Notes under the pieces: generated by a model
Told to the model about the DNA's origin: nothing
The model's input: only the letters and a program-made list of their open reading frames with translations
Database searches by the model: none
Assembly: GCA_964399295.1 (NCBI GenBank)
Contig: CAYNQD010000001.1
Location: 527,672 to 591,671, forward strand
Direction of reading: 5' to 3'
DNA from: an uncultured Candidatus Saccharibacteria bacterium
Lineage (GTDB): Bacteria; Patescibacteriota; Minisyncoccia; Phycocordibacterales; UBA918
Length of the DNA: 64,000 nucleotides
Translations under genes and position numbers: made by a program
Shown: piece by piece, positions 6,167 to 58,643 of the stretch
Layout: every line of letters begins with the position of its first letter
How positions within the stretch are numbered: position 1 is the stretch's first letter

Positions 6167-9100
6167 TTGTGCTATAAATACTGTATGTACTCAGTAAATG
6201 ACTACCTTTCTGAGATAGCCAAGTACTTTGAAGATGAGAACAGTTCTGAGCACTCGTATCGGACATCATTTCAAAATTACTTAGCTACTATATTCCCCGA
6301 ATCAGAGGGCTATTTTATTCAGCAGGATCAGCGAGCAATAAACGGCAACAAACCAGACTATATTGTCCTCAAGAACAAAGTTCCACTTTTATATATTGAA
6401 GTTAAGAAGGTTGGAGAAGATTTAAATAAAATTGAAAACTCTAATCAAGCCGATCGTTATTTCGGATACACAAACTTAATCATTAGTGATTACGTTGAGT
6501 TTCGTTTTTTCAGGAATGGTCAGCGGTACGACGACTCGATATCACTTGGTGATGTTCATGCTAAAACTCGCACTATCTCCCCTAAGGCAGAGAATGCGGA
6601 GCGTCTTGTGCGTACAACTAAAGACTTCACTAATAGTCAGAAAGAGCCAATCAAGAGTGGTAGGCACTTAGCAAAAATTATGGGAGGTAAGGCTCAGCGC
6701 ATCAGAGATAACGTTATTGCTTTTCTTGAAACTGAAAGTACTGATAAAGATGAGCTAATTCGGATGCGAAGGTTTATTAAGGAGCATTTGATTGAAAACT
6801 TCTCTGATGCAGATTTTGCTGATATGTACGCCCAAACTTTGGTGTATGGACTTTTTGCAGCTCGATACAATGATGATACTCTCGAGAGCTTTAGTCGTCA
6901 GGAGGCACGAGAGTTGGTACCTGCTACCAATCCATTCTTAAAGAGTTTCTTTGATCACATCTCGGGCACTTCTTTCCCTCGCCGTTTAGAACTTATCGTT
7001 AATGAACTTTGTGAGGTATTTACCCATGCAGACGTTAAGGCATTGATGGAGGACTACTTCAAAACAACCGATTTATTTGGTACAGACCATGAGAGTCCAG
7101 ACCCTGTGATCCACTTTTATGAAGACTTCCTTCGAGAATACGACCCTTCTAAAAAGATGGAAATGGGTGTTTTTTACACACCGCTTCCTGTAGTTAGATT
7201 TATTATTCGAGGTATAGACGAGCTTCTTAAGAAGGAGTTTGGTATTGCTAAAGGTTTGGCAGACAACGAAAAGATATCTGTAACAAAAACTCATGTAGAT
7301 GATCGAGGAAAAAATATTAAAGACACTCGAGAGATTCATCGTGTACAAATGCTCGATGTGGCAGTAGGTACTGGTACGTTCCTTAATGAAACGGTGAATC
7401 ATATTCACGAGTCACAGAAATCTAACCAAGGTCGTTGGAATGCGTATGTAGAAGACGATTTATTACCTCGTCTACATGGTTTTGAACTTATGATGGCAAG
7501 TTACACTATTGCTCATCTCAAGCTTGCAATGACCCTCAAGAAGAGTGGCGTGGAAAAGTTTGGAAAACGATTAGGCGTATATCTTAGTAACACGCTCGAT
7601 GATGCTCATAACATACCGTTAACTAGCTCATTATTTGGTGTTGTAGATAGTATTGCTCAGGAAAGCCGACTTGCTTCGGAAGTAAAAAATGACACACCTA
7701 TAATGGTAGTGATGGGTAATCCTCCGTATTCAGTAGTGTCACAGAACCTTCATTATACTGATAATCAAGTTTACAAAGTAGAACCAGGCGGCTTGAAAAA
7801 GCTAAAAGAAGATAAAAATTTCCTTGATGATGATTATGTTAAGTTCATCCGTTTTGCTGAAAGTATGGTTGAGAAAAATGGCGAAGGTATAATTGGGATG
7901 ATTACAAATCATGGCTATATTGATAACCTCTCTTTTAGAGGAATGCGTTGGCATTTAAGGAATACTTTCGATGTGATTTATGTACTGGATCTTCATGGAA
8001 ATAGCACGAAGAAAGAAACTGCACCTGATGGCTCAGAGGATAAAAACGTATTCGACATTAAAACAGGTGTATCAATTATTTTTGGAGTTAAGAAGAAATC
8101 TGAACAAAAAAATAAAGAACTTGCAACTGTGTACACTGCTGACATATATGGGAAGAGGGCTGAAAAATTTGCTGAATTAAGTAGTGCGAATATCGAAGGA
8201 ATTAAATGGAATAAACTACCTGAAGTTTCTGACGTTTGGAGAGTTGAAGGAGAAGGTAAAAGCGATTATATGAAAGGCTTTTCTCTGGCAGATTTATTCC
8301 CAAAAAATACAACCGGTGTCTTTACTCTAGGTGACGGTTTTATCGTTGCTGACAACAAAGATGAACTTGAAAAAAGAATTGAAGTTTTACTCAATGAAGA
8401 TGTGTCAGAGTCACAATTGACCGAGAAATATTCACTTGGAAAAAATTATGCTAGATGGGTCATTGAAAATAAAAAAGCGGGGAAAATAATTGACTTCAGA
8501 AGTACTTTAACTTCACTGAATTACAGACCATTTGATAAACGCTACACCACCCTGACGACTAGTTTGGTTTGGCGTCCGCGTATCTCCGTGATGAAGCATT
8601 TATTGCAATCTGGGAATACGGCGTTGTTATTTAGTAGACAGGGTGGAGCTGCAAATCCCACATCATTTGACACTATTTTTATTTCAGACTCTGCAGTTGA
8701 TCTTAATTTCTTTAGAAGAGGCGGTGAGGTTGTGTGTCCTCTCTACTTGTATGAAGGTGATGACAGAGTTGCTAATCTGGATGATGAGATTGTTAATAAT
8801 ATTGAAAAGATATCGCACAAGACTAATCCAGAGGATATTGTAGATTACATTTACGCGTATCTGCACTCACCTACCTATCGCACAAAGTACAAAGAATTTT
8901 TGAATGGTGACTTTCCTCGAGTTCCTTATCCGAAAAATAAAGATTATTTTTGGAAAATTGTAGAGTCAGGTCGTCACCTAAGAGAACTGCACCTACTTAC
9001 TCATTCTTCAATACAAAATCAAATCACCTCTTTTCCAGAAACTGGAACAGATACGGTAGATAAGCCAGTATTTAAAAATAACCGTGTATATATAAATGAT

Positions 9101-9292
9101 GTTCAGTATTGGGACGGTATACCGAAGGAGGTGTGGGAATTCTATATCGGGGGTTACCAACCATTGCAGAAATATCTAAAAGACCGTAAAGGCAAAAAAC
9201 TAAGCTCAGCAGAGTTTGAGAATTATGAAAAAATGATTGTCTCATTAAATGAAACAATCATGGTTATGAAGGAAATAGATAAAATTATTTAA
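6167..9292 (+). CDS. Type IIG/IIL restriction-modification enzyme (N-terminal PD-ExK nuclease, gamma-class N6-adenine methyltransferase, C-terminal target-recognition region), MmeI/PglX-like
   Basis: 1041 aa. The N-terminus has KPDYIVL...LYIEVKK (PD...E-x-K). The methyltransferase motif IV is VVMGNPPYS, and a motif-I-like LDVAVGTGTF is upstream. The start may be the second Met at 6185. Confidence 0.75.
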   Translation: MCYKYCMYSVNDYLSEIAKYFEDENSSEHSYRTSFQNYLATIFPESEGYFIQQDQRAINGNKPDYIVLKNKVPLLYIEVKKVGEDLNKIENSNQADRYFGYTNLIISDYVEFRFFRNGQRYDDSISLGDVHAKTRTISPKAENAERLVRTTKDFTNSQKEPIKSGRHLAKIMGGKAQRIRDNVIAFLETESTDKDELIRMRRFIKEHLIENFSDADFADMYAQTLVYGLFAARYNDDTLESFSRQEARELVPATNPFLKSFFDHISGTSFPRRLELIVNELCEVFTHADVKALMEDYFKTTDLFGTDHESPDPVIHFYEDFLREYDPSKKMEMGVFYTPLPVVRFIIRGIDELLKKEFGIAKGLADNEKISVTKTHVDDRGKNIKDTREIHRVQMLDVAVGTGTFLNETVNHIHESQKSNQGRWNAYVEDDLLPRLHGFELMMASYTIAHLKLAMTLKKSGVEKFGKRLGVYLSNTLDDAHNIPLTSSLFGVVDSIAQESRLASEVKNDTPIMVVMGNPPYSVVSQNLHYTDNQVYKVEPGGLKKLKEDKNFLDDDYVKFIRFAESMVEKNGEGIIGMITNHGYIDNLSFRGMRWHLRNTFDVIYVLDLHGNSTKKETAPDGSEDKNVFDIKTGVSIIFGVKKKSEQKNKELATVYTADIYGKRAEKFAELSSANIEGIKWNKLPEVSDVWRVEGEGKSDYMKGFSLADLFPKNTTGVFTLGDGFIVADNKDELEKRIEVLLNEDVSESQLTEKYSLGKNYARWVIENKKAGKIIDFRSTLTSLNYRPFDKRYTTLTTSLVWRPRISVMKHLLQSGNTALLFSRQGGAANPTSFDTIFISDSAVDLNFFRRGGEVVCPLYLYEGDDRVANLDDEIVNNIEKISHKTNPEDIVDYIYAYLHSPTYRTKYKEFLNGDFPRVPYPKNKDYFWKIVESGRHLRELHLLTHSSIQNQITSFPETGTDTVDKPVFKNNRVYINDVQYWDGIPKEVWEFYIGGYQPLQKYLKDRKGKKLSSAEFENYEKMIVSLNETIMVMKEIDKII

Positions 9293-48761: not shown

Positions 48762-48818
48762 GAAAAAAGAAAAAGAAAAGGCGGGCGCGAAGCGCCCGCC
48801 TTTTCTTTTTCTTTTTCT
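48762..48818. terminator. Bidirectional rho-independent terminator (downstream of ndk)
   Basis: The palindrome is GAAAAAGAAAAGGCGGGCGC-gaa-GCGCCCGCCTTTTCTTTTTC. The GC-rich stem is flanked by A-runs and T-runs on both sides. Confidence 0.7.
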
Positions 48819-49503: not shown

Positions 49504-50109
49504 CTACTCATCCCACTTCTTCTTGAAAGTTATTACCCGATAAAAATAAGTAGCAAAAATAAGTGCCACTATCGCGTTTGATATTGGGTCTAGGTAATTA
49601 CCAATTTTGTCATGCTGGCTCTGCAAAAAATAACCCGTCAAAGCCAGCAAGGTAGACCAGAGAAGACTACCGATAAAAGAATATAGCAAAAATGACCACA
49701 CCGGCATCTTGGCAATACCGGCCGGTACTGAAATGAGGGTGCGAATGGTAGGAATCATCCGCCCAAACAACACCGCCTTGCGGCCATAACGATGAAACCA
49801 CACCTCGGCCGCGTCGATATCTTCCGGTGTCAGGGTCAAAGCACGGCCATAACGCAACGACAACCGCTTCAACCTCTTAATCCCAAACATCCTCCCCAAA
49901 ATATACCAAGGCAAAACTCCCGCCACCGTACCCAAAGACACCACCAATATCACCAAAAAAATATTCATCTCTCCCGCCGCGGCCGCGTATCCAGCTAGAG
50001 GAATAATCACCTCCGACGGTATCGGCGGAAAAATATTTTCCAAAACCATCAAAAAGAAAATACCGGCGTATCCGCCAGTTTCAATAATGTGAAGCGTCCA
50101 ATCAAACAT
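49504..50109 (-). CDS. DedA/SNARE-associated family membrane protein
   Basis: Polytopic, with the DedA signature region FGRMIPTIRTLISVPAG. Confidence 0.75.
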   Translation of the reverse strand: MFDWTLHIIETGGYAGIFFLMVLENIFPPIPSEVIIPLAGYAAAAGEMNIFLVILVVSLGTVAGVLPWYILGRMFGIKRLKRLSLRYGRALTLTPEDIDAAEVWFHRYGRKAVLFGRMIPTIRTLISVPAGIAKMPVWSFLLYSFIGSLLWSTLLALTGYFLQSQHDKIGNYLDPISNAIVALIFATYFYRVITFKKKWDE

Positions 50110-50129
50110 AATGGCTACATTCTAGCAGA
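50074..50129. repeat. Direct repeat copy 1 (56 bp; covers the dedA start codon, 12 codons and about 20 bp upstream)
   Basis: GCCAGTTTCAATAATGTGAAGCGTCCAATCAAACATAATGGCTACATTCTAGCAGA is identical to 51006..51061. Confidence 0.9.
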
Positions 50130-50338
50130 TAGCGGACAAAAGACCTCATGGTTTGGGTTTGATAATTGGAAGCGCACATGGAGAAACTGACTAAAGAAAA
50201 AAGACTAACGCGACAAAAGACCGTATTTATAGCCTCTTCAAAAGAATTTATATGTCAGTTGGATCAATCATATGTACTTATTGTATCAATATATATAAAT
50301 ATTATCAATCATTTAGGTATTGAAACGACCTTGACTCC

Positions 50339-50374
50339 ATCTACAAAAATAGAAATTGAATATATTGATTAAAC
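50339..50374 (-). repeat. Solitary CRISPR-type repeat, a near-identical copy of the 53.2-kb array repeat (1 mismatch)
   Basis: ATCTACAAAAATAGAAATTGAATATATTGATTAAAC differs from the array repeat ATCTACAAAAGTAGAAATTGAATATATTGATTAAAC by one G-to-A change (a G-U wobble in the hairpin). No second repeat lies within 2.7 kb. Confidence 0.7.
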
Positions 50375-50471
50375 CTGTGTGCCATCATCTTTAACAAGTA
50401 CAATTTGTAGATGACCCCGATTGAGTGCAGTAAGATTTCCTGCAAGACGAAGCTCAGCCATTCTAATCTCC

Positions 50472-50954
50472 TTATAATCTTGTTTTTATTATTCTAAGAT
50501 CGTGAATAATAATTCGTTCAATCTCAGTATATAAAATTTCAATACTTACGCTATGTACAAGTATTTTTGATTCTAGGTTAAGAAGCCAGCCATGCGCAAA
50601 AATGATGCCTTGTTTTTCAGTATTCCAGTATGCTGCAACAGAAAACGCAGGATTATTTATACCGTATATTCTCGTTGAATTTTCGCTTAATAAAGCTGAC
50701 TTTACTTCTAAACCTTGTGCAATCAACCAGGCTTCAGCTTCTTCCCAGCTGTCAAAATTAGAAGAGAGAAAATCTTTAAGTTGAGCCTTTGCTTCTTCTT
50801 CTGAAATACTATTCGACCATGCGACAAAATCAAAATCAGCATCAGTAGATAGTGTTTCTTTCTTTTGCATAAGTTGTTCTGCTGCAGTAATAGTACCCAA
50901 AAGAATTACTAAAGTTGATATTGTTATTAGTGTGATTTTAAAAGCATTTTTCAT
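50472..50954 (-). CDS. Secreted hypothetical protein (paralog of 51997..52500)
   Basis: It has a signal peptide. The first 80 residues are about 80% identical to the N-terminus of the 52015 gene (TITAAEQLMQKKETLS..FDFVAWSNSISEEEAKAQLKDFLSS). The duplicated dedA promoter lies directly upstream. Confidence 0.5.
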   Translation of the reverse strand: MKNAFKITLITISTLVILLGTITAAEQLMQKKETLSTDADFDFVAWSNSISEEEAKAQLKDFLSSNFDSWEEAEAWLIAQGLEVKSALLSENSTRIYGINNPAFSVAAYWNTEKQGIIFAHGWLLNLESKILVHSVSIEILYTEIERIIIHDLRIIKTRL

Positions 50955-51005
50955 ATCTTAATTAACTGCTTTGCTGTCATCATTTAAAAGCCAAGACAGC
51001 TTTAT

Positions 51006-51061
51006 GCCAGTTTCAATAATGTGAAGCGTCCAATCAAACATAATGGCTACATTCTAGCAGA
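51006..51061. repeat. Direct repeat copy 2 (56 bp)
   Basis: Identical to 50074..50129. On the minus strand it fuses the first 12 dedA codons to a 27-aa ORF that ends immediately upstream of the 50954 gene. Confidence 0.9.
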
Positions 51062-51202
51062 ATGCCGGCAAAAACACGATTTGGTTGTGTGGTGGAGGTG
51101 GCAAAAGAAAGATTAAACATAGCTAGGCAAGTTTGGAGTACAAAGAAGAACGCCGAGATTAGAGCTGGATATTTTATTTCGTTTTATTGGAAAATAATAA
51201 AA

Positions 51203-51826
51203 TTAGAACTCTCCAAACCGTTGATCAAGATTTATCACATAGTCTCTGAGGCGCAAAGTTCTTTCAGACGCAAGAGTTAAAGAACATCGCGTACTTTCCG
51301 TATTTCCTATAACCCTGTTGTGCAGCCAATAGGTGCTTGTTAACGAACATTCGGCATCAAAATACTGTTCCCATAAATTTTGAGAGGATTTAAGCGGTTC
51401 TGATAATTCATCAATACCATAAAGCGTGTCTAGGTATTTTTTCATTAAATCAAACCAAGCCTCTACTTCATAATTACCACAATTAACTTCTGTACATTCA
51501 AAAGCATAGGTTCCCACGCACTTTTCTGAAGAAATTCCAGTTTTCTTTTGATCCAAACAAGATTCGATGATTGAGACCGCCTTAGCAATTTCTACCTCGT
51601 TACGATCTGATAAGGCAATTTTTTGTCCACGGGGCGTATCTTCCTGAAATGATTCAGAGATTTCTTGGTTTTGGTAGTATTGAGATAAAGTTTTTTCTTC
51701 TCTTGAAATGCCAGAGTCATTATCAACACTTAACTGTTTACCACTTTCAACTATTTCTAAAAAATAAAAAGTTAGTCCGAAACCAACCAACATAACTAGG
51801 GCAATGATTTTCATTGATTTATTCAT
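51203..51826 (-). CDS. Membrane-anchored or secreted Cys-containing hypothetical protein (possibly DUF1311/LprI-like)
   Basis: 207 aa with an N-terminal TM/signal helix. The C-terminus carries conserved Cys and Tyr (EQYFDAECSL...RCSLTLASERTLRLRDYV). Confidence 0.35.
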   Translation of the reverse strand: MNKSMKIIALVMLVGFGLTFYFLEIVESGKQLSVDNDSGISREEKTLSQYYQNQEISESFQEDTPRGQKIALSDRNEVEIAKAVSIIESCLDQKKTGISSEKCVGTYAFECTEVNCGNYEVEAWFDLMKKYLDTLYGIDELSEPLKSSQNLWEQYFDAECSLTSTYWLHNRVIGNTESTRCSLTLASERTLRLRDYVINLDQRFGEF

Positions 51827-52014
51827 AATATGAAATAGAATATCATATAATTTAAGAGGTATGAATAAATTGCTTGAAAAAAATTGTACATAAGCACAAT
51901 TGATTCCGGTTAAATTTTCCTTGTGTTTTTGTCAGCGCAAGTGTTATTGCAAAAGAATTGTTGTGAAGAGTCAGGAAGTTTACATAAGTATCGAGTGTGG
52001 TATTATTCATTAAT

Positions 52015-52500
52015 ATGAAAAGTGTTTTAAAAAGTACGCTTATAACAATATCGGCCCTAGTCATTCTTTTGGCCACCATTACTGTAGCAGAACAACTTAT
52101 GCAAAAGAAGGAAACGCTCTCTGTTGAGGCTAATTTTGATTTTGTTGCTTGGTCAAATAGTATTTCAGAAGAAGAAGCAAAAGCTCAGCTTAAGGATTTC
52201 CTATCTTCTTTTAATAATTGGGAAGAGGTTGAAAGCTGGCTGGGTGCACAGGGTTTCCGGGTAGAGAAACCTTTATTAACTCCTGAGAATACAGCAGAAA
52301 TTTACGGTATTGATAATAAACCTATATTATTTACTGCGGTAGCAGGCTGGTCTCCAAAAAGGCAAGGCATTATTTTTGCAAATAATTTGATTATTAAAAT
52401 TGAATCAAAGTTGTTTGTATATGGTGTAAATATTGGATTTTTATATTCTGAGGATCCTTTCTTAATTCAGCGAATTAATATAACAAAAACACGACAATAA
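52015..52500 (+). CDS. Secreted hypothetical protein (paralog of 50472..50954)
   Basis: See the paralog entry. It is the first gene of a three-gene plus-strand cassette that ends in the CRISPR mini-array. Confidence 0.5.
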   Translation: MKSVLKSTLITISALVILLATITVAEQLMQKKETLSVEANFDFVAWSNSISEEEAKAQLKDFLSSFNNWEEVESWLGAQGFRVEKPLLTPENTAEIYGIDNKPILFTAVAGWSPKRQGIIFANNLIIKIESKLFVYGVNIGFLYSEDPFLIQRINITKTRQ

Positions 52501-52505
52501 GGAGA

Positions 52506-52802
52506 GTGGGTATGGCAGAACTTCGTTTGGCATCTAGTTACGCCAGCATAGACACGTTCCAAGCTTGGTTAGAGTTTCAGGGTTTTGAAGTCACTGCTCG
52601 TTTTGAACACCAGAATGCAGATCCCATGGGGGCATGGATTGGTCTCAGTGGTAGCCGTAATCATGCTGAGAATAATGGTCGCTTGTTTAGCGTAAGCGTG
52701 TTTCAGAAATTTTTAGGTCAGGATCATAGTATGTCGGTTTTTGCGCAGTTCGATCATACCGATAACGTAATCGGCATACAAACTGCATTTAACACTAAAT
52801 AG
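52506..52802 (+). CDS. Small hypothetical protein
   Basis: 98 aa (MGMAELRLASSY...). Its N-terminus is echoed in the 30-aa remnant on the minus strand at 50368..50460. Confidence 0.45.
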   Translation: MGMAELRLASSYASIDTFQAWLEFQGFEVTARFEHQNADPMGAWIGLSGSRNHAENNGRLFSVSVFQKFLGQDHSMSVFAQFDHTDNVIGIQTAFNTK

Positions 52803-52813
52803 GGGGAAATGAA

Positions 52814-53164
52814 GTGGCGACAGTAAATTTGGCAGGTAATTTGATTACTGGAATTAGTGTACTGGGTGTTGGTCACCTACAGCTCGTTCGGATTGATGGA
52901 ACAAATCAATTGGAAATTGAAGTTCAGGCGCCCACTGATTTTGGGATGTTTGGAGGTGAATGGGTATATCATCAAAGGGATCATACAGATCCCAATCACA
53001 CGAGCGCATTCATACCTAATGCCAACGGCGTGTCCCCCAATCCAAACGAATATGCGATTACAGAAATAGACGTTGGGAATCGTAATCCAGACGAAGTATG
53101 GCAAGTATTAACTAGGATATATGATGAATTTCGTTTGAAAGGAGACTTTGAATATATTGATTAA
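52814..53164 (+). CDS. Small hypothetical protein whose last 6 codons lie inside the terminal CRISPR repeat
   Basis: 116 aa (MATVNLAGNLITG...GHLQLVRIDGTNQ...). The C-terminus ...GDFEYID* is encoded by TTTGAATATATTGATTAA, which is the 3' 18 nt of the repeat. Its homologous N-terminus is found in the 50.4-kb remnant. Confidence 0.45.
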   Translation: MATVNLAGNLITGISVLGVGHLQLVRIDGTNQLEIEVQAPTDFGMFGGEWVYHQRDHTDPNHTSAFIPNANGVSPNPNEYAITEIDVGNRNPDEVWQVLTRIYDEFRLKGDFEYID

Positions 53165-53352
53165 ACCTCCTTGCGGATAAGCAGGTGCTCGTATCTACAA
53201 AAGTAGAAATTGAATATATTGATTAAACACACGCGTCAACGAATCTTTGGCGGTATCTACAAAAGTAGAAATTGAATATATTGATTAAACTCAACACTAA
53301 AGGACGAATACGCCTGATCTACAAAAGTAGAAATTGAATATATTGCAGCCAA
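53148..53352 (-). CRISPR. Orphan CRISPR mini-array: 3 spacers (26 nt each) and 36-nt repeats of Cas12a/type V-A-like sequence
   Basis: Identical 36-nt repeats at 53193-53228 and 53255-53290 (ATCTACAAAAGTAGAAATTGAATATATTGATTAAAC on the plus strand). A third copy at 53317-53352 matches for 29 nt and then diverges. A truncated 19-nt copy lies at 53148-53166. Unique spacers sit at 53167-53192 (CTCCTTGCGGATAAGCAGGTGCTCGT), 53229-53254 (ACACGCGTCAACGAATCTTTGGCGGT) and 53291-53316 (TCAACACTAAAGGACGAATACGCCTG). The minus-strand repeat is GTTTAATCAATATATTCAATTTCTACTTTTGTAGAT, which ends in the Cas12a crRNA handle AAUUUCUACU-UUU-GUAGAU. Confidence 0.7.
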
Positions 53353-53446
53353 TTTCCAAATAAGATTTATACACAATAATGGTACTATGTGGTTCTTGTG
53401 GTGTTAATAATTTTTTATAATAGAGAAGACACAAAAAACGAAACTT

Positions 53447-54379
53447 ATGATAAAAAATAATACACATGTCGTACTGGGAGCTTCGGGTGCTATTGGCCAA
53501 GGAGTAGTCAAGGCCTTGCAGGAAAAAGGTCTGGTGATAAGAGCTGTTGAGAGATCAAAACAAGTTGCGGGCATAGAGACGGTTTTGGCTGATCTCAGCG
53601 ATGAAAAGCAAGCGCGGGAGGCGATAGTGGGCGCGAGCCATGTTTATCTTTGCGTCGGCCTACCGTACAACACTAAAATTTGGCAAAGCGGATGGCCGCG
53701 GCTTATGCGCTCCGTCATCAATGCCTGTGCAGAGGCAAACGCCAAGTTGATTTTCTTTGATAATGTATATATGTACGGACCTTCTCTGTCGGTGCCATTT
53801 ACTGAAAATCACCCACAAAACCCAACAACAAAGAAAGGGATGGTGAGGAAACAGGTAGCGGATTTGTTACTGCAAGCGCACAATTCCAGCCAGGTGCAAG
53901 CGGTTATCGGGCGGTCGGCTGATTTTTACGGCCCTAAAGCCGTCAACAGCCAGCTTTACATAAAATTTATCGAACGCATCAAACAAGGGAAAAATCCACA
54001 ATGGCTCGGCCAGCCAGACCAGCCACACACCTACTCCTACACACTAGACAATGGGCGAGCGCTAGTAGAGCTGGCGCTTGACGACACCGCTTACGGACAA
54101 GTCTGGCATTTGCCAGTTGGTAAGCCCATTGCGATTGGAGAAATCCTTGGCCTCATCAATAAGAAGCTCGGGACTTCATACAAAGTTTCTTATTTACCCC
54201 GACCTTTACTCGGTCTAATGTCACTCTTTATTCCACCAATTAAAGAGGTCAAAGAAATGCTGTATCAATTTGACAATCCATACATCATGTCTGACCAAAA
54301 ATTTCGAGATCGCTTTCCGGATTTTAAAACGACCAGCTATGAGGAGGGTTTGGCTGCCATGATTGAGAGTTTTGAGTAA
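53447..54379 (+). CDS. NAD-dependent epimerase/dehydratase-family (SDR) protein
   Basis: The N-terminal Rossmann motif is VLGASGAIGQGVVKAL. It is 310 aa. Confidence 0.7.
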   Translation: MIKNNTHVVLGASGAIGQGVVKALQEKGLVIRAVERSKQVAGIETVLADLSDEKQAREAIVGASHVYLCVGLPYNTKIWQSGWPRLMRSVINACAEANAKLIFFDNVYMYGPSLSVPFTENHPQNPTTKKGMVRKQVADLLLQAHNSSQVQAVIGRSADFYGPKAVNSQLYIKFIERIKQGKNPQWLGQPDQPHTYSYTLDNGRALVELALDDTAYGQVWHLPVGKPIAIGEILGLINKKLGTSYKVSYLPRPLLGLMSLFIPPIKEVKEMLYQFDNPYIMSDQKFRDRFPDFKTTSYEEGLAAMIESFE

Positions 54380-54533
54380 GGAGATGAGCTTTATTTAGCT
54401 GAAGTATTAAAGCAGCCAGATACGCGTGCGTTTCTTTTTCGTTTGACTTTTGCGATGAAAATTGTAGGATAATCGAGCAATGATGTTGCTTTGGCAACAC
54501 TGGTTATTGAGTTATTTTACAAAGGAGAAAAAG

Positions 54534-55001
54534 ATGAGTTCCACCACAGAAGTAGAAGAAGATACTTTTTTCAATGCGACTTTCAGCAACTCCATTACGG
54601 AAGCGGTTGCTTTCGTGTCGTGTCTGGTAAATGGAAAACTGCCATTTGACATAAAGACCCTTCTGGAAACGCATGAAGAGTATATGGAAAATCACCCGAC
54701 AACCTATGATGAATATTGGCTGTTTGGGAAAGCTTTTATCAAAAAAACATCCCAGATAAGGAGAGTCCTGAAACACAAACGTATATCCGAAATAAAGGGT
54801 GGTCGGGTTATCGCAAAATTGGACAAAAGATCAAAAGATGGTCAAATCTTGACGCGTACTATCTATATTACTTTCACAGACGGTACTCACGTCCAGCTTG
54901 ATTATGCTTTCAATATTTTCGACAATGATAAGTGGAGTGTTTCACAACTCACTTACAAAGATGTCGAAAATAAAAAATCGCTTGTCCTAATAATGTATTA
55001 A
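54534..55001 (+). CDS. Hypothetical protein
   Basis: The start is taken at MSSTTEVEED, with SD AAAGGAG 6 nt upstream. No motif was recognised. Confidence 0.4.
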   Translation: MSSTTEVEEDTFFNATFSNSITEAVAFVSCLVNGKLPFDIKTLLETHEEYMENHPTTYDEYWLFGKAFIKKTSQIRRVLKHKRISEIKGGRVIAKLDKRSKDGQILTRTIYITFTDGTHVQLDYAFNIFDNDKWSVSQLTYKDVENKKSLVLIMY

Positions 55002-55261
55002 TATCTATTAGGGACAAAAAAACAGCACGTCATTATCGACATGCTGTTTTATTTTTTAGAACTACAGAAACCAAGTGGGTTCATCGCACAAAAATGCGTT
55101 CTACCCTAGCAAATTTTGCAGAGTCACCACCAAAGCCGCCTGCGCCAACAGCATTCCCGCCACCCACTTAATCATATCAACCCGTTGATTTTTCATCTCC
55201 AATTTTAGTTCTTGGATATTTTCTTGGAGTATGCTTTTCATAGGATTTTAATATTCCAGCT

Positions 55262-56032
55262 CTACTTAGTCAAAATCACTGGCCCCTTTTCGGTAATCGC
55301 TACGGTGTGCTCAAAGTGCGCCGAGATGGAGCCGTCTTTGGTGTAGACACTGTAGCCATCGCCTTCGTCATCGAAATAGACATCTTTCTTTCCCAAATTT
55401 ACAATCGGCTCAATAGCATACACGTGCCCCACTTCAATCTTTGGCCCAGTGCCGGCTTTGCCAAAATTTGGAATTGTTGGTTCTTCATGCACGGCATAGC
55501 CCACCCCATGCCCACACAAAACTTCCACTACCGAAAATCCACGTGCTTCCACAAATTCCTGAATGGCAGCGCTAATATCACCAATCCTGTTGCCCGCTTT
55601 GGCCATTTTTATGCCGTGAGCTAGGGCTTCTTGCGTAGTGCTGAGTAGCTTCTTAGCTTCCGCGGAAATTTTTCCCACGCCCACTGTGATTCCCGAATCA
55701 ACAATCATTCCCTTGTAGCCAATCGACATGTCGATATTGACGACGTCACCTTCTTTCAAAACCACCCCCTCACTGGGAATGCCATGCTGCACACAATCAT
55801 TGACCGACACACACACGGCCGCCGGATAAGGATAATCGGCAAAAGTCGGATGATAACCTAGCAGTACCGGCTCAGCGCCGTATTTTTCAACCAGTTCCAT
55901 CGCCTTATCATCAATATCAAGAGTGGTGTTGCCCACCACCGCTTCCTTGGCTAATTCTTTCAAGCACTTAGCCAGAATAGCACCAGCCTCTTTTAAAATT
56001 TCAATTTCCTCAGGAGTTTTTTTTGTTATCAT
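55262..56032 (-). CDS. map: Type I methionine aminopeptidase
   Basis: The pita-bread fold metal ligands sit in ...DVVNIDMS..., HGVGYAVHEEP, and EPIVN/EHT. Confidence 0.85.
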   Translation of the reverse strand: MITKKTPEEIEILKEAGAILAKCLKELAKEAVVGNTTLDIDDKAMELVEKYGAEPVLLGYHPTFADYPYPAAVCVSVNDCVQHGIPSEGVVLKEGDVVNIDMSIGYKGMIVDSGITVGVGKISAEAKKLLSTTQEALAHGIKMAKAGNRIGDISAAIQEFVEARGFSVVEVLCGHGVGYAVHEEPTIPNFGKAGTGPKIEVGHVYAIEPIVNLGKKDVYFDDEGDGYSVYTKDGSISAHFEHTVAITEKGPVILTK

Positions 56033-56034
56033 AG

Positions 56035-56631
56035 TTATTTTAATTTAAGCGCGGAAATGATTTGCTCATGCACACCATCAATCGTGTCGTCGCCTTTTAT
56101 ATCATGTACGGTTACATTGGCGATATTTTTATAATATGCAATTACCGGCAAGGTGTCTTCACGATACCATCGTAAGCGATTCTCGATTGATTCTAAAGTA
56201 TCATCGTCTCTGGCTCTTTCCAACATCCGCGCTTTTACCACCTCTTCCGGAGTATCGAGATTGATAACGTGAATATTTTTCCTTTCAAAAAAATCGAAAG
56301 CGCCGGCTAGAGTTTCGGCTTGGGCTACGGTCCGGGGGAAACCATCAATCAACAAATGACTTCCCGGATCAAGCTCACTGAGCATTTGTTGACCCCACAG
56401 AGCATAAGTAAGGAAATCAGGCTGCAAAACACCCGCTTGCAAGGAGTCGGCGATTTTGTTTTGCGCGAAAGTTTGGCGGGGGGCGGTCAAGCTTCTAAAT
56501 AAGCTGCCAGTCTGTACATCCACCAGCTTTCTATCACCATCAAGCGCGGTGATGATATTTTTAATCTTGCTAATCTGAGTGCCTTTGCCGCTGCCTTGCG
56601 GCCCGACAAAAATTAAAGTTAGTGGTTGCAT
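56035..56631 (-). CDS. adk: Adenylate kinase
   Basis: The P-loop is FVGPQGSGKGTQ, and LIDGFPRTVAQAE is the NMP-binding motif. Confidence 0.85.
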   Translation of the reverse strand: MQPLTLIFVGPQGSGKGTQISKIKNIITALDGDRKLVDVQTGSLFRSLTAPRQTFAQNKIADSLQAGVLQPDFLTYALWGQQMLSELDPGSHLLIDGFPRTVAQAETLAGAFDFFERKNIHVINLDTPEEVVKARMLERARDDDTLESIENRLRWYREDTLPVIAYYKNIANVTVHDIKGDDTIDGVHEQIISALKLK

Positions 56632-56646
56632 ATTTTTACTGGAAAG

Positions 56647-57243
56647 TTATGATGAATAAACTCGATTTTTTAGCGATTCAATCAACCGGCAAAATTCTTC
56701 TTTTGCTGGGGTGAAATCATTGGTGGAATTATCAATAATAATATCAGCAATGTCTTTTGAGGCTACTTCCACCAAATAGCGTTCATAGCGGGAATTGAGC
56801 TCATCTTCACTCATCGGCGCGCGCCCAAGGGCGCGCGCCTTTAACACCTCCCAACCACCGGCATCTATAAAAACAGTCGTGATGTGCTCCGCAAGAATAA
56901 GCTGGTGAAGCTGCTCCACTCCCTGCACGTCTATTTCCGCAATAACAATCTGGCCATTTTCCAAGCGCTGGACAATTTCGCTTTTCAGAGTCCCGTATTT
57001 ATTGGCTCCAAATACCGCCCACTCCAAAAAATCTCCAGCCGCAACTTTTTGTTCAAATTCAGCTGGTGTTAGAAAATAATAATCCTTACCCTCAATCTCA
57101 CCTGGGCGCATGGCTCTAGTGGTACAAGAAACCGTCACGTACAAATCGGGAATCGTAGCCAAAGCCTCTTTTATTAAAGTGCCTTTGCCGCTACCCATTG
57201 GAGCCATTACCACCAAGACATGTCCTTTTATATTGCCTATCAT
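56647..57243 (-). CDS. gmk: Guanylate kinase
   Basis: VVMAPMGSGKGTL...VSCTTRAMRPGEIEGKDYYFL...EWAVFGANKYGT matches the Gmk family. The start is placed at the internal Met (MIGNIKG). Its position between secY and adk is unusual. Confidence 0.75.
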   Translation of the reverse strand: MIGNIKGHVLVVMAPMGSGKGTLIKEALATIPDLYVTVSCTTRAMRPGEIEGKDYYFLTPAEFEQKVAAGDFLEWAVFGANKYGTLKSEIVQRLENGQIVIAEIDVQGVEQLHQLILAEHITTVFIDAGGWEVLKARALGRAPMSEDELNSRYERYLVEVASKDIADIIIDNSTNDFTPAKEEFCRLIESLKNRVYSS

Positions 57244-57304
57244 GCCATCCGAGAGTAGCAGTTTTTTGTCTATTTCGCAACACAATTTATGTTATGCTTG
57301 GGCC

Positions 57305-57363
57305 GGAGGGAGAAAATTAAAGAGGCGTGCCCAAAGGGCACGCCTCTTTAATTTTCTCCCTCC
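57305..57363. repeat. Perfect 28-bp-stem inverted repeat (hairpin) between secY and gmk
   Basis: GGAGGGAGAAAATTAAAGAGGCGTGCCC-aaa-GGGCACGCCTCTTTAATTTTCTCCCTCC has arms that are exactly reverse-complementary. No U-run follows on the secY transcript strand. Confidence 0.85.
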
Positions 57364-57371
57364 TTTACCTT

Positions 57372-58643
57372 CTAATACTCCCGCATCGACACCTGCGCGT
57401 CCAAACGACGAATCAAGTCTAGTACCACCTGTACCACGATCAAGACCGCTGTTCCGCCCATGGCTAAAGCCGCGATACCGGTAACCGCCTGCATACCAAT
57501 CGGAATCACCGCCACTATACCCAAGAAAGTAGCGCCAACCAGAGTAAGTCTGGTAATCAAACCACCTAAATATTCAGAAGTCTGTGTTCCCGGACGAATA
57601 CCCGGAATATACGAACCATTACGCTGCAGATTTTTGGCGACGGAATCCGGATCGAAAGTAATTGCTGTATAAAAGAAAGTAAACAGAAATACCAAGACAA
57701 AATACACTCCTCCGTATACCCATTGATTCGCCAGAATGGCGGTCACGGTTTCGTTTGCTCCAGCTACCCAAGGCAGATTGAAAGCCGATAGAATATTCAA
57801 CACCATCTGTGGCAACAATAGAATCGACAGCGCAAAGATGATCGGAATTACACCAGCCTGATTGATGCGCAGCGGCAGGTATGAAGAGCTGCCACCGTAA
57901 GTCATTCCGCCTCGACTTTGCTTGGCTGAGGTTATTGGCACCGGACGTTCAGCTTCAGTCATCAGCACCACCGCGTAAATAATGAGCAAGGCCACAATCA
58001 CAAATCCAACATAAAGCGGGAGTTGTGATGGGTCAAATGAAAACGCCAATTGACTCACGGTTGAAGGTAGCGTTGCCACGATACCGGCAAAGATGATGAT
58101 TGACACACCGTTTCCAATACCATATTCAGTTATGAGTTCACCAATCCACATCAAAAGCACCGAACCAGCTACAATCAAAACGACGTTAACAGCAAAGTCA
58201 AAAGTGGATAGCCCTACAATCACGCCTTGGCTTTGCAAAAGAGTCAAAAAACCAAACCCTTGCAAAATCGCCAAAGGCAAAGTCAAAAGCCGACTGTATT
58301 GAGTAAATTTAGCCCTTCCAGCCTCACCTTCTTCAGTGTACAAGCTCTTGACCTTCGGTGACATCACCGTCATAAGCTGCATGATAATGGAAGCGGTAAT
58401 GAAAGGCCCAACACCCAACATCACGATTGAGAGATTGGCCAAGCCGCCTCCGGAAAAGATATTCAAGAGACCGAGAAATTGATTGTCTGAGAAGAACTGT
58501 TGTAGCACAGCCTGATCAACTCCAGGAATTGGAATTGAAGCCAAGAGTCTAAAAACTACCAAAGCCCCCAAGATAATCAAAACTCGATTACGGATGGACG
58601 GTTCGGTAAAAATTAGAGTGAGCTTACGAAAAAATGTTTGCAT
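57372..58643 (-). CDS. secY: Preprotein translocase subunit SecY
   Basis: 423 aa with 10 TM helices and a conserved SecY N-terminus and plug region. Confidence 0.9.
   Translation of the reverse strand: MQTFFRKLTLIFTEPSIRNRVLIILGALVVFRLLASIPIPGVDQAVLQQFFSDNQFLGLLNIFSGGGLANLSIVMLGVGPFITASIIMQLMTVMSPKVKSLYTEEGEAGRAKFTQYSRLLTLPLAILQGFGFLTLLQSQGVIVGLSTFDFAVNVVLIVAGSVLLMWIGELITEYGIGNGVSIIIFAGIVATLPSTVSQLAFSFDPSQLPLYVGFVIVALLIIYAVVLMTEAERPVPITSAKQSRGGMTYGGSSSYLPLRINQAGVIPIIFALSILLLPQMVLNILSAFNLPWVAGANETVTAILANQWVYGGVYFVLVFLFTFFYTAITFDPDSVAKNLQRNGSYIPGIRPGTQTSEYLGGLITRLTLVGATFLGIVAVIPIGMQAVTGIAALAMGGTAVLIVVQVVLDLIRRLDAQVSMREY

Follow-up and report, generated by a model that had tools for sequence, protein, structure and literature searches.

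In a 64-kb stretch of the genome of an uncultured Candidatus Saccharibacteria bacterium (contig CAYNQD010000001.1; the whole 64,000-nt stretch is referred to as the window, and its strain as W), the 5′ end of dedA, which encodes a VTT/DedA family membrane protein, is present twice. The reading that we favour, at roughly even confidence, is that the dedA expression module was recently copied 932 nt upstream in W by a local, non-transposon event and now stands before a promoterless gene, the left member of a pair of paralogs. The 56-mer GCCAGTTTCAATAATGTGAAGCGTCCAATCAAACATAATGGCTACATTCTAGCAGA (R56) occurs in exactly two copies in the window, on the same strand and with 0 mismatches, at 50074-50129 (copy 1) and 51006-51061 (copy 2), where an earlier note on this DNA had placed it; the chance expectation for such a pair was 0 matches in 100 shuffles. 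Copy 1 (minus strand) is the native module of dedA (49504-50109, minus strand) and consists of the first 12 codons (36 nt, MFDWTLHIIETG) and 20 nt upstream, in agreement with the 12 codons and about 20 bp of 5′ flank described before. Copy 2 (minus strand) is ectopic and 100% identical to copy 1. By repeat finding and BLAST the pair reaches 68 nt at 94% identity (50074-50141 and 51006-51073), with all 4 mismatches within the final 12 nt. Between the copies lies a unique spacer of 876 nt (50130-51005), which gives a copy-to-copy offset of 932 nt. We refer to the minus-strand flanks upstream of copies 1 and 2 as F1 (50130-50338) and F2 (51062-51202, extending to the stop of an LprI-like gene), and to the unique 49-nt linker between copy 2 and the ATG of the left paralog as X (50957-51005, minus strand). 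The breakpoint between copy 2 and X is sharp (51005|51006), and X has no similarity to dedA from codon 13 onward. The first 12 nt of F2 match F1 at 8 of 12 positions (TTTTGyCsGC). Copy 2 opens a chimeric open reading frame (ORF) of 27 codons (50958-51041, minus strand), made of MFDWTLHIIETG and 15 unrelated codons, whose TAA stop precedes by 3 nt the start codon (ATG, 50954) of the 160-aa left paralog, an arrangement that the earlier note had also recognized.

The 56-mer is a self-contained predicted promoter with a start codon and 12 codons. Twenty nucleotides are normally too short for a promoter, and a generic -35/-10 scan found none in the 56-mer; the conclusion drawn from that scan, that the repeat contains no promoter, was dropped once a comparison of dedA orthologs exposed an extended -10 box. 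The box TGCTAGAAT lies at 50119-50127 (minus strand), 9 nt upstream of the dedA ATG, and again in copy 2 at 51051-51059 (minus strand), at the same 9-nt distance from the ATG that opens the chimeric ORF; in both copies TGn directly precedes a TAnnnT -10 hexamer. The comparison covered five sequence-distinct upstream regions, from four relatives (65-74% amino acid identity) and from a close strain, V. A TGnTA(G/C)AAT box was found 6-9 nt before the dedA ATG in 5/5 regions, and the remaining upstream DNA was unalignable. It reads TGCTAGAAT at 9 nt from the ATG in W and V, TGCTAGAAT at 6 nt in L011, TGTTAGAAT at 6 nt in L107, TGGTAGAAT at 7 nt in L111 and TGATACAAT at 9 nt in L012. Extended -10 (TGn) promoters do not need a -35 element. 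At this spacing the predicted transcription start therefore lies at or within ~3 nt of the ATG, as in leaderless-type mRNAs; the 9-nt spacing of W and L012 implies a 2-3-nt leader and is not strictly leaderless. Across both strands of the window there are 14 TGNTANAAT motifs, half of which (7/14) lie 6-9 nt before a start codon; six of these precede long ORFs (examples of start-proximal boxes are at 1434, 22860, 31080, 38319(-) and 62637(-)) and the seventh is that of copy 2. Leaderless genes are common in Actinobacteria and Deinococcus, and the distribution of the motif suggests that leaderless-type transcription is widespread in this genome of the candidate phyla radiation (CPR). The sequence comparison thus supports the proposal that both the promoter and the start of dedA had been duplicated.

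The gene behind copy 2 belongs to a pair. The left paralog (160 aa, 50472-50954, minus strand) has an N-terminal transmembrane (TM)/signal helix and a distant MBG-like domain, and has no promoter box of its own. The right paralog (161 aa, 52015-52500, plus strand) is inverted; 8 nt before its ATG it retains an extended -10 box, TGgTATTAT (51998-52006). The two are 62% identical as proteins and 73% identical as DNA over 526 nt (27% divergence). Because the cassette homology stops 2 nt before the ATG, the left paralog lacks an equivalent of that box; what it has instead is the 49-nt linker X and copy 2, so that its ATG lies 87 nt behind a copy of the dedA promoter. Promoter capture, as the earlier note put it, is a reasonable description of this layout, in which the left paralog may depend on the box of copy 2. 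Copy 2 would start a leaderless transcript whose first ORF is the 27-codon dedA′ chimera, and the chimera's stop 3 nt before the next ATG would permit termination-reinitiation or translational coupling. No terminator-like site was found downstream of copy 2 on the minus strand, and the transcript could continue through a truncated gene, a solitary Cas12a-type repeat-spacer unit and F1 into dedA, while copy 1 would still serve dedA. The two copies also bound a 932-bp unit that would be prone to deletion, or open to amplification, by homologous recombination.

The exactness of the 56-mer contrasts with the divergence of the paralogs. Over the N-terminal 66 aa these are 85% identical, with 17/56 conserved codons changed synonymously, and over the C-terminal part 46% identical. 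Both are real genes, since their N-termini have been conserved despite many synonymous changes. Third-position divergence is uniform along the pair at ~0.33, on which ground gene conversion between the paralogs was rejected as the source of local identity. The paralog duplication is old by these measures. The two 56-mers, in contrast, have 0 differences against 27% nucleotide and 33% third-position divergence in the paralogs; by our own arithmetic the chance of 56 identical positions at 25% divergence is ~1e-7. The 56-mer copy is thus much younger than the paralog duplication, and the two are separate events. As a separate observation, synonymous divergence is equal in the two halves of the paralogs, yet the C-terminal half has changed much faster than the N-terminal one.

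Copy number of the 56-mer differs between strains that are ~99.4% identical. GTDB species representatives contained no dedA relative above 43% identity, and dedA orthologs at 65-74% identity have different neighbour genes; because reference relatives are this distant and their neighbours differ, a DNA-level search for the empty site was limited to same-species contigs, namely Logan assemblies of runs SRR16797977 to SRR16798008 found via a protein collection. One of them, L015 (SRR16797981, 23.8 kb; strain V), shares 99.3-99.6% identity with the window. Without a break it leads from dedA through the 56-mer, which bears one single-nucleotide polymorphism (SNP; G40T, 3 nt before the ATG), into F1. 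Of the supposed insert it includes the first 239 nt (50130-50368), and it stops 30 nt into a solitary CRISPR repeat (50339-50374), the 'solo repeat' of the earlier note. Strain V therefore has a single 56-mer copy, because a second copy sharing at least 31 nt would have broken L015, and this single copy joins the proximal flank F1 and not the distal flank F2. No sequence variants of the proteins encoded in the island 50375-53130, which contains the paralogs, were found in a collection of 15 billion proteins; given the per-nucleotide strain difference of ~0.5%, this suggests that V lacks the whole island. A 56-62-aa TM protein encoded upstream of dedA in relatives was considered as a marker of the ancestral flank and set aside, having no homologue in the window. 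Strain V differs from W by a second small structural polymorphism: the 111-nt intergenic segment 46991-47101, bordered by the ends of the beta-CASP and L20 genes, is replaced by an unrelated 124 nt (L015 3268-3391).

The repeat itself is reproduced in independent read sets. Four same-species Logan contigs (L016, L018, L020 and L021) are 100% identical to the window, and in at least 8 sequencing runs the assemblies break exactly at the 56-mer borders, as expected for a graph with k=31, the value that we take from the 30-nt overlaps and from general knowledge of Logan. L020 and L021 come from dedA and end at 50103, which is k-1 = 30 nt into copy 1. L016, present in five samples, is 936 nt long (30 + 876 + 30), spans 50100-51035 and ends 30 nt into copy 2. 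L018 (SRR16797999) spans 51006-53220, and L022 continues over 53261-58379. The repeat is genuine because all four of its junctions recur, at 100% identity, in independent assemblies that break where a k=31 graph must, and the serial order dedA-R56-F1 is seen directly as contiguous sequence in L015. The assembly artefact that the earlier note had named as a way for its reading to fail is not what these contigs contain.

The borders of the repeat suggest how the second copy may have arisen. On the left, the repeat ends (50073|50074) within a GC-rich hairpin, in its 5′ arm. This hairpin (ACTGGCG-GATA-CGCCGGT, 50062-50079, minus strand), with a T-run behind it, occupies dedA codons 10-16 and is terminator-like (z = -2.9). 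The right border fades through the 8/12 matching positions; similarity anchored at the border has p ~0.04, in the right flank only, and local alignment found no homology beyond the repeat that was better than in shuffles. We propose that template switching or illegitimate recombination, in the course of replication or repair, made the second copy, and that copying entered at this short homeology and aborted at the hairpin. The setting would have been a low-GC hypervariable island beside a CRISPR array, and the module would have landed between the LprI-like gene (207 aa, 51203-51826, minus strand; upstream of copy 2; Pfam LprI E=8.6e-4, below the curated cut-off) and an old inverted MBG-like paralog that already had no promoter box.

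Several points weigh against this account. The template-switch origin leans on two modestly significant breakpoint features (p ~0.03-0.04 each). V beyond the solitary repeat is not covered by L015, and a gain in W and a loss in V both fit. The promoter activity, the leaderless start and the translational coupling are derived from motif position and general sigma-70 knowledge. L018 begins at base 1 of copy 2 and not at base 27, as a k=31 graph predicts, which may hint at other connectivities in some samples or at low coverage. Last, the 56-mer and CRISPR-repeat pairs are interleaved, and one short patch event alone does not explain this.

The interleaving is what a Campbell-type co-integrate would leave behind, an explanation that we regard as unlikely, if less so than the other alternatives. 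A single crossover, at the CRISPR repeat or at the 56-mer, would have joined a short, V-like interval to circular or otherwise foreign DNA that carried the long version with the LprI-like gene and the paralogs, and the outcome would be two interleaved pairs of direct repeats. The direct repeats do lie in that order, with the 56-mer at 50074, the CRISPR repeat at 50339, the second 56-mer at 51006 and a CRISPR array at 53131-53352. The island between the same-sense CRISPR repeats has an exact junction at one end, where a 30-codon N-terminal fragment (50369-50461, minus strand) of a gene resembling that of a 116-aa ORF meets the solitary repeat precisely at the repeat's first base. In strain V the solitary position is occupied by a perfect repeat, apparently without the island proteins, and a viral contig with a solitary repeat of the same family indicates that such repeats travel on mobile DNA. 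The same crossover, on the other hand, requires incoming DNA that already carried a perfect 56-nt copy of host sequence 265 nt from the crossover point, and so a preceding event that was not observed; among viral or plasmid-type families there are no homologues of the island proteins, and no replication or recombination gene is present.

The earlier note had instead taken the 876 bp between the copies for a mobile cassette inserted at the dedA promoter, which the data do not bear out and which we judge improbable. Such an element, carrying the left paralog and the solitary repeat, would have entered the dedA 5′ end and left 56 bp in two copies, which would be a target-site duplication of exceptional length or the attL/attR of an integrase-less element mobilized in trans, restoring dedA and leaving a promoter copy before the cargo. 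The copies are indeed exact direct repeats that overlap a gene end and flank DNA of 33% GC (window, 42.5%), the cargo gene reads away from copy 2 as promoter capture expects, and the map-ndk region around the locus is variable among relatives. Between the repeats, however, the only ORFs are those of the 160-aa MBG-like protein, a 30-aa fragment and the 27-codon chimera, with no transposase by Pfam, PHROG or PADLOC; 50130-51005 has no terminal inverted repeats (its first 80 nt scored 6 against the reverse complement of its last 80 nt, and 993/1000 shuffles scored equally; the repeat search listed no such pair either); no tyrosine or serine recombinase (integrase) domain was found in 47-55 kb; and the island proteins have no phage or defence domains (PHROG, PADLOC). 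Transposon target-site duplications usually measure 2-15 nt, far less than the exact 56 nt, or the 68 nt at 94%, of this repeat. Nor do the 56-mers bound the low-GC tract, which runs 2.4 kb past copy 2, with 35.5% GC over 50130-53446. In V the first 239 nt of the 'insert', F1 included, follow the single 56-mer, and the empty site that the note had predicted, dedA-R56-F2 (51062 onward), is in no contig; full-length DedA of the W type is encoded in no Logan contig and hence in none next to F2.

The locus can also be compared with known elements. Like integrative elements with attL/attR repeats and their integrase-less, cis-mobilisable derivatives, it has exact direct repeats of tens of base pairs that include a host gene end and flank low-GC DNA; unlike them, it has no integrase nearby, its repeat includes the 5′ end of a gene with its promoter, it would carry 876 nt of cargo, part of the 'element' persists next to a single repeat in a close strain, and the low-GC tract is not repeat-delimited. 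As with transposon target-site duplications, direct repeats flank a segment that is at least partly absent from a related strain, but these repeats exceed the usual length and come without terminal inverted repeats or a transposase.

Two further explanations fare worse. The 56-mers could be the core, kept by selection or gene conversion, of an old and longer duplication of the dedA upstream region (terminator tail, promoter and start). Both flanks open with a weak hairpin and TTTTG, like the terminator-promoter junction upstream of dedA in relatives, and the right flanks have in-register similarity at 20/40 positions; we nevertheless consider this quite improbable, for the flank similarity is marginal in both the local and the anchored alignments, the left flank has none, the 12 codons of copy 2 have 0 changes under no known synonymous constraint, and V has no second copy. 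A fault of assembly or connectivity, in which the copies are not serial (a 932-bp circle, a tandem amplification or two haplotypes joined at a shared 56-mer), could use the fact that a k=31 graph cannot order the four junctions and that L018, starting at base 1 of copy 2, misfits a simple 2-in/2-out node, but is highly improbable given the four junction sequences at 100% identity in several samples, the unbroken dedA-R56-F1 of V, where a SNP splits the repeat, the ease with which ordinary short reads span 56 nt and a deposited contig of 594 kb.

Read as a recent local copy of the dedA module, the locus is, on the sequence, a further case of a known type of event, promoter capture by small duplication, here enabled by compact leaderless promoters. 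Such a promoter capture is reported from the long-term evolution experiment with E. coli, in which an rnk-citT duplication underlies Cit+ (Blount et al. in 2012). As in rnk-citT, the duplication junction puts an existing promoter before a gene without suitable signals, and the event is recent and strain-specific and leaves the original gene intact. In contrast to rnk-citT, a module of only 56-68 nt is involved and not a multi-kb head-to-tail unit, the copies are 876 nt apart, and the copy brings a start codon and 12 codons and thereby creates a chimeric upstream ORF. The predicted promoters resemble leaderless extended -10 promoters in having a TGnTAnAAT box with no recognisable -35, placed 6-9 nt before the start and conserved across orthologues, and differ from them in that the starts are predicted and that the spacing in W and L012 is 9 nt. 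In a genome with leaderless promoters a whole gene expression signal would fit into ~25-56 nt, so that one tiny copy event could rewire a neighbouring gene. The locus offers a strain-polymorphic example from a CPR bacterium, a group with almost no experimental promoter data, and a caution for annotators that long direct repeats at gene starts are not automatically 'insertion scars'.

The orphan Cas12a-type mini-array and the solitary repeat of this region are more unusual features than the 56-mer. The solitary type V-A (Cas12a) repeat (50339-50374, minus strand) has 1 mismatch in W, is perfect in V and is followed by a unique 26-nt unit (50313-50338); the mismatch keeps the stem as a G.U pair, leaving the stem-loop intact. 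The 160-aa gene is upstream of the repeat, on the same strand, and the two would be co-transcribed. The mini-array (53131-53352, minus strand), 2.8 kb away, comprises three units of a 36-nt repeat and a 26-nt spacer and a degenerate terminal repeat, with a leader at 53353-53446. In both places the repeat GTTTAATCAATATATTCAATTTCTACTTTTGTAGAT is read on the minus strand, with unique 26-nt spacers; the array has a period of 62 bp. The form is that of type V-A repeats, a 36-nt repeat ending AAUUUCUACU-N3-5-GUAGAU with unique spacers of ~26 nt, and its handle is one that we take to match the Cas12a consensus. A 25-nt core of the repeat occurs in 82 metagenome loci, in arrays of period ~62; L028 and L038 encode proteins with Cas12a Pfam domains as well as Cas4 and Cas1 beside such arrays, and in L075 the identical 36-mer accompanies a Cas12a that has 99% identity to a protein of Candidatus Kaiserbacteria. 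None of these 82 loci contains homologues of the island proteins. In the 64-kb window there is no cas gene, the 594,086-nt source contig carries none of the 120 top-ranking Cas12a homologues, and the largest ORF of the window (1041 aa) encodes a Type ISP restriction-modification enzyme. The four spacers gave no protospacer match in IMG/VR, and the window holds no self-targets or seed matches with a TTTV protospacer adjacent motif.

The viral contig with a solitary repeat is L024 (11671-11695; IMG/VR UViG_3300037067_013626), which has one repeat of the same Cas12a family and no array; it resembles RNA anti-CRISPR loci, and we treat it as a lead only. Solitary repeat units, RNA anti-CRISPRs and CRISPR RNA (crRNA)-like regulators have been described (PMC10651486; PMC11656645; bioRxiv 10.1101/2024.10.29.618823). 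The solitary repeat of W is like solitary repeat units and RNA anti-CRISPRs in being a single Cas12a-type repeat with an intact stem-loop, outside an array and beside small genes. It differs from RNA anti-CRISPRs in its location on the chromosome of a CPR bacterium, where the 64 kb around it include no cas gene and a mini-array with this repeat is 2.8 kb off; no target or partial target was found. For the 56-mer duplication the repeat is context. A composite transcript is conceivable, though we think it a long shot, in which the 56-nt promoter drives the 27-codon ORF, the paralog and, in the 3′ part, a Cas12a repeat-spacer that is processed to a crRNA-like regulator or decoy, the repeat pairs forming a switchable module. 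Cas12a would then come from elsewhere in the genome or from an invader, and the processed RNA would start AAUUUCUAUUUUUGUAGAU-GGAGUCAAGG; a 932-bp or 2.8-kb loop-out would vary surface-protein and crRNA expression between sister cells of the CPR episymbiont.

Two smaller features lie next to these repeats. Within F1, 50259-50312 is a 21-bp tandem repeat (2.6 copies) with ATCAAT(A/C)ATAT, a sequence similar to the 5′ portion of an oppositely oriented CRISPR repeat; on the minus strand a TTGATA-17-TGnTACAAT site overlaps the tandem repeat. The last ~12 codons and stop of the 116-aa ORF (52814-53164) are formed by the degenerate terminal CRISPR repeat sequence (53131-53166) on the opposite strand.

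The proteins of the locus can be placed to different degrees. DedA (201 aa; Pfam VTT_dom E=1.1e-23) has Patescibacteria DedA proteins as its homologues, the next-best being 74% identical, and these mark the source genome as one of the Patescibacteria (CPR, Parcubacteria-like). A word-based search of 5.8 billion proteins found only the two paralogs themselves; when 1.84 billion representatives were searched exhaustively with a profile, 20 relatives emerged, including giant surface proteins built of MBG_2 (YGX-type) repeats. With these matches and the N-terminal hydrophobic helix, the 160-aa and 161-aa paralogs fit small secreted or anchored MBG-like proteins; an AlphaFold model of the 160-aa protein, with a predicted local distance difference test (pLDDT) score of 40, was unusable. 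With a 96-aa ORF (52512-52802), which has an AWLxxQGxEV stretch in common with them, the paralogs (50472-50954 and 52015-52500) form a cluster of small, very rare proteins with a TM/signal N-terminus and a distant MBG (YGX) domain.

Elsewhere, an Rfam search of 48-55 kb returned nothing relevant. A relative has map (M24 peptidase) directly beside ndk (L011 1-1028), whereas in the window they are ~5.8 kb apart (53447-56032 compared), with a 173-aa ORF, an epimerase gene, the CRISPR array, the island and dedA in the interval, which is thus a variable genome region. The Type ISP restriction-modification enzyme (Type_ISP_C, N6_Mtase) is encoded at 6167-9292. Perfect palindromes of 25 nt and 28 nt with 3-nt loops, at 48764-48816 and 57305-57363, lie between convergent or tandem genes and form strong bidirectional terminator-like hairpins.

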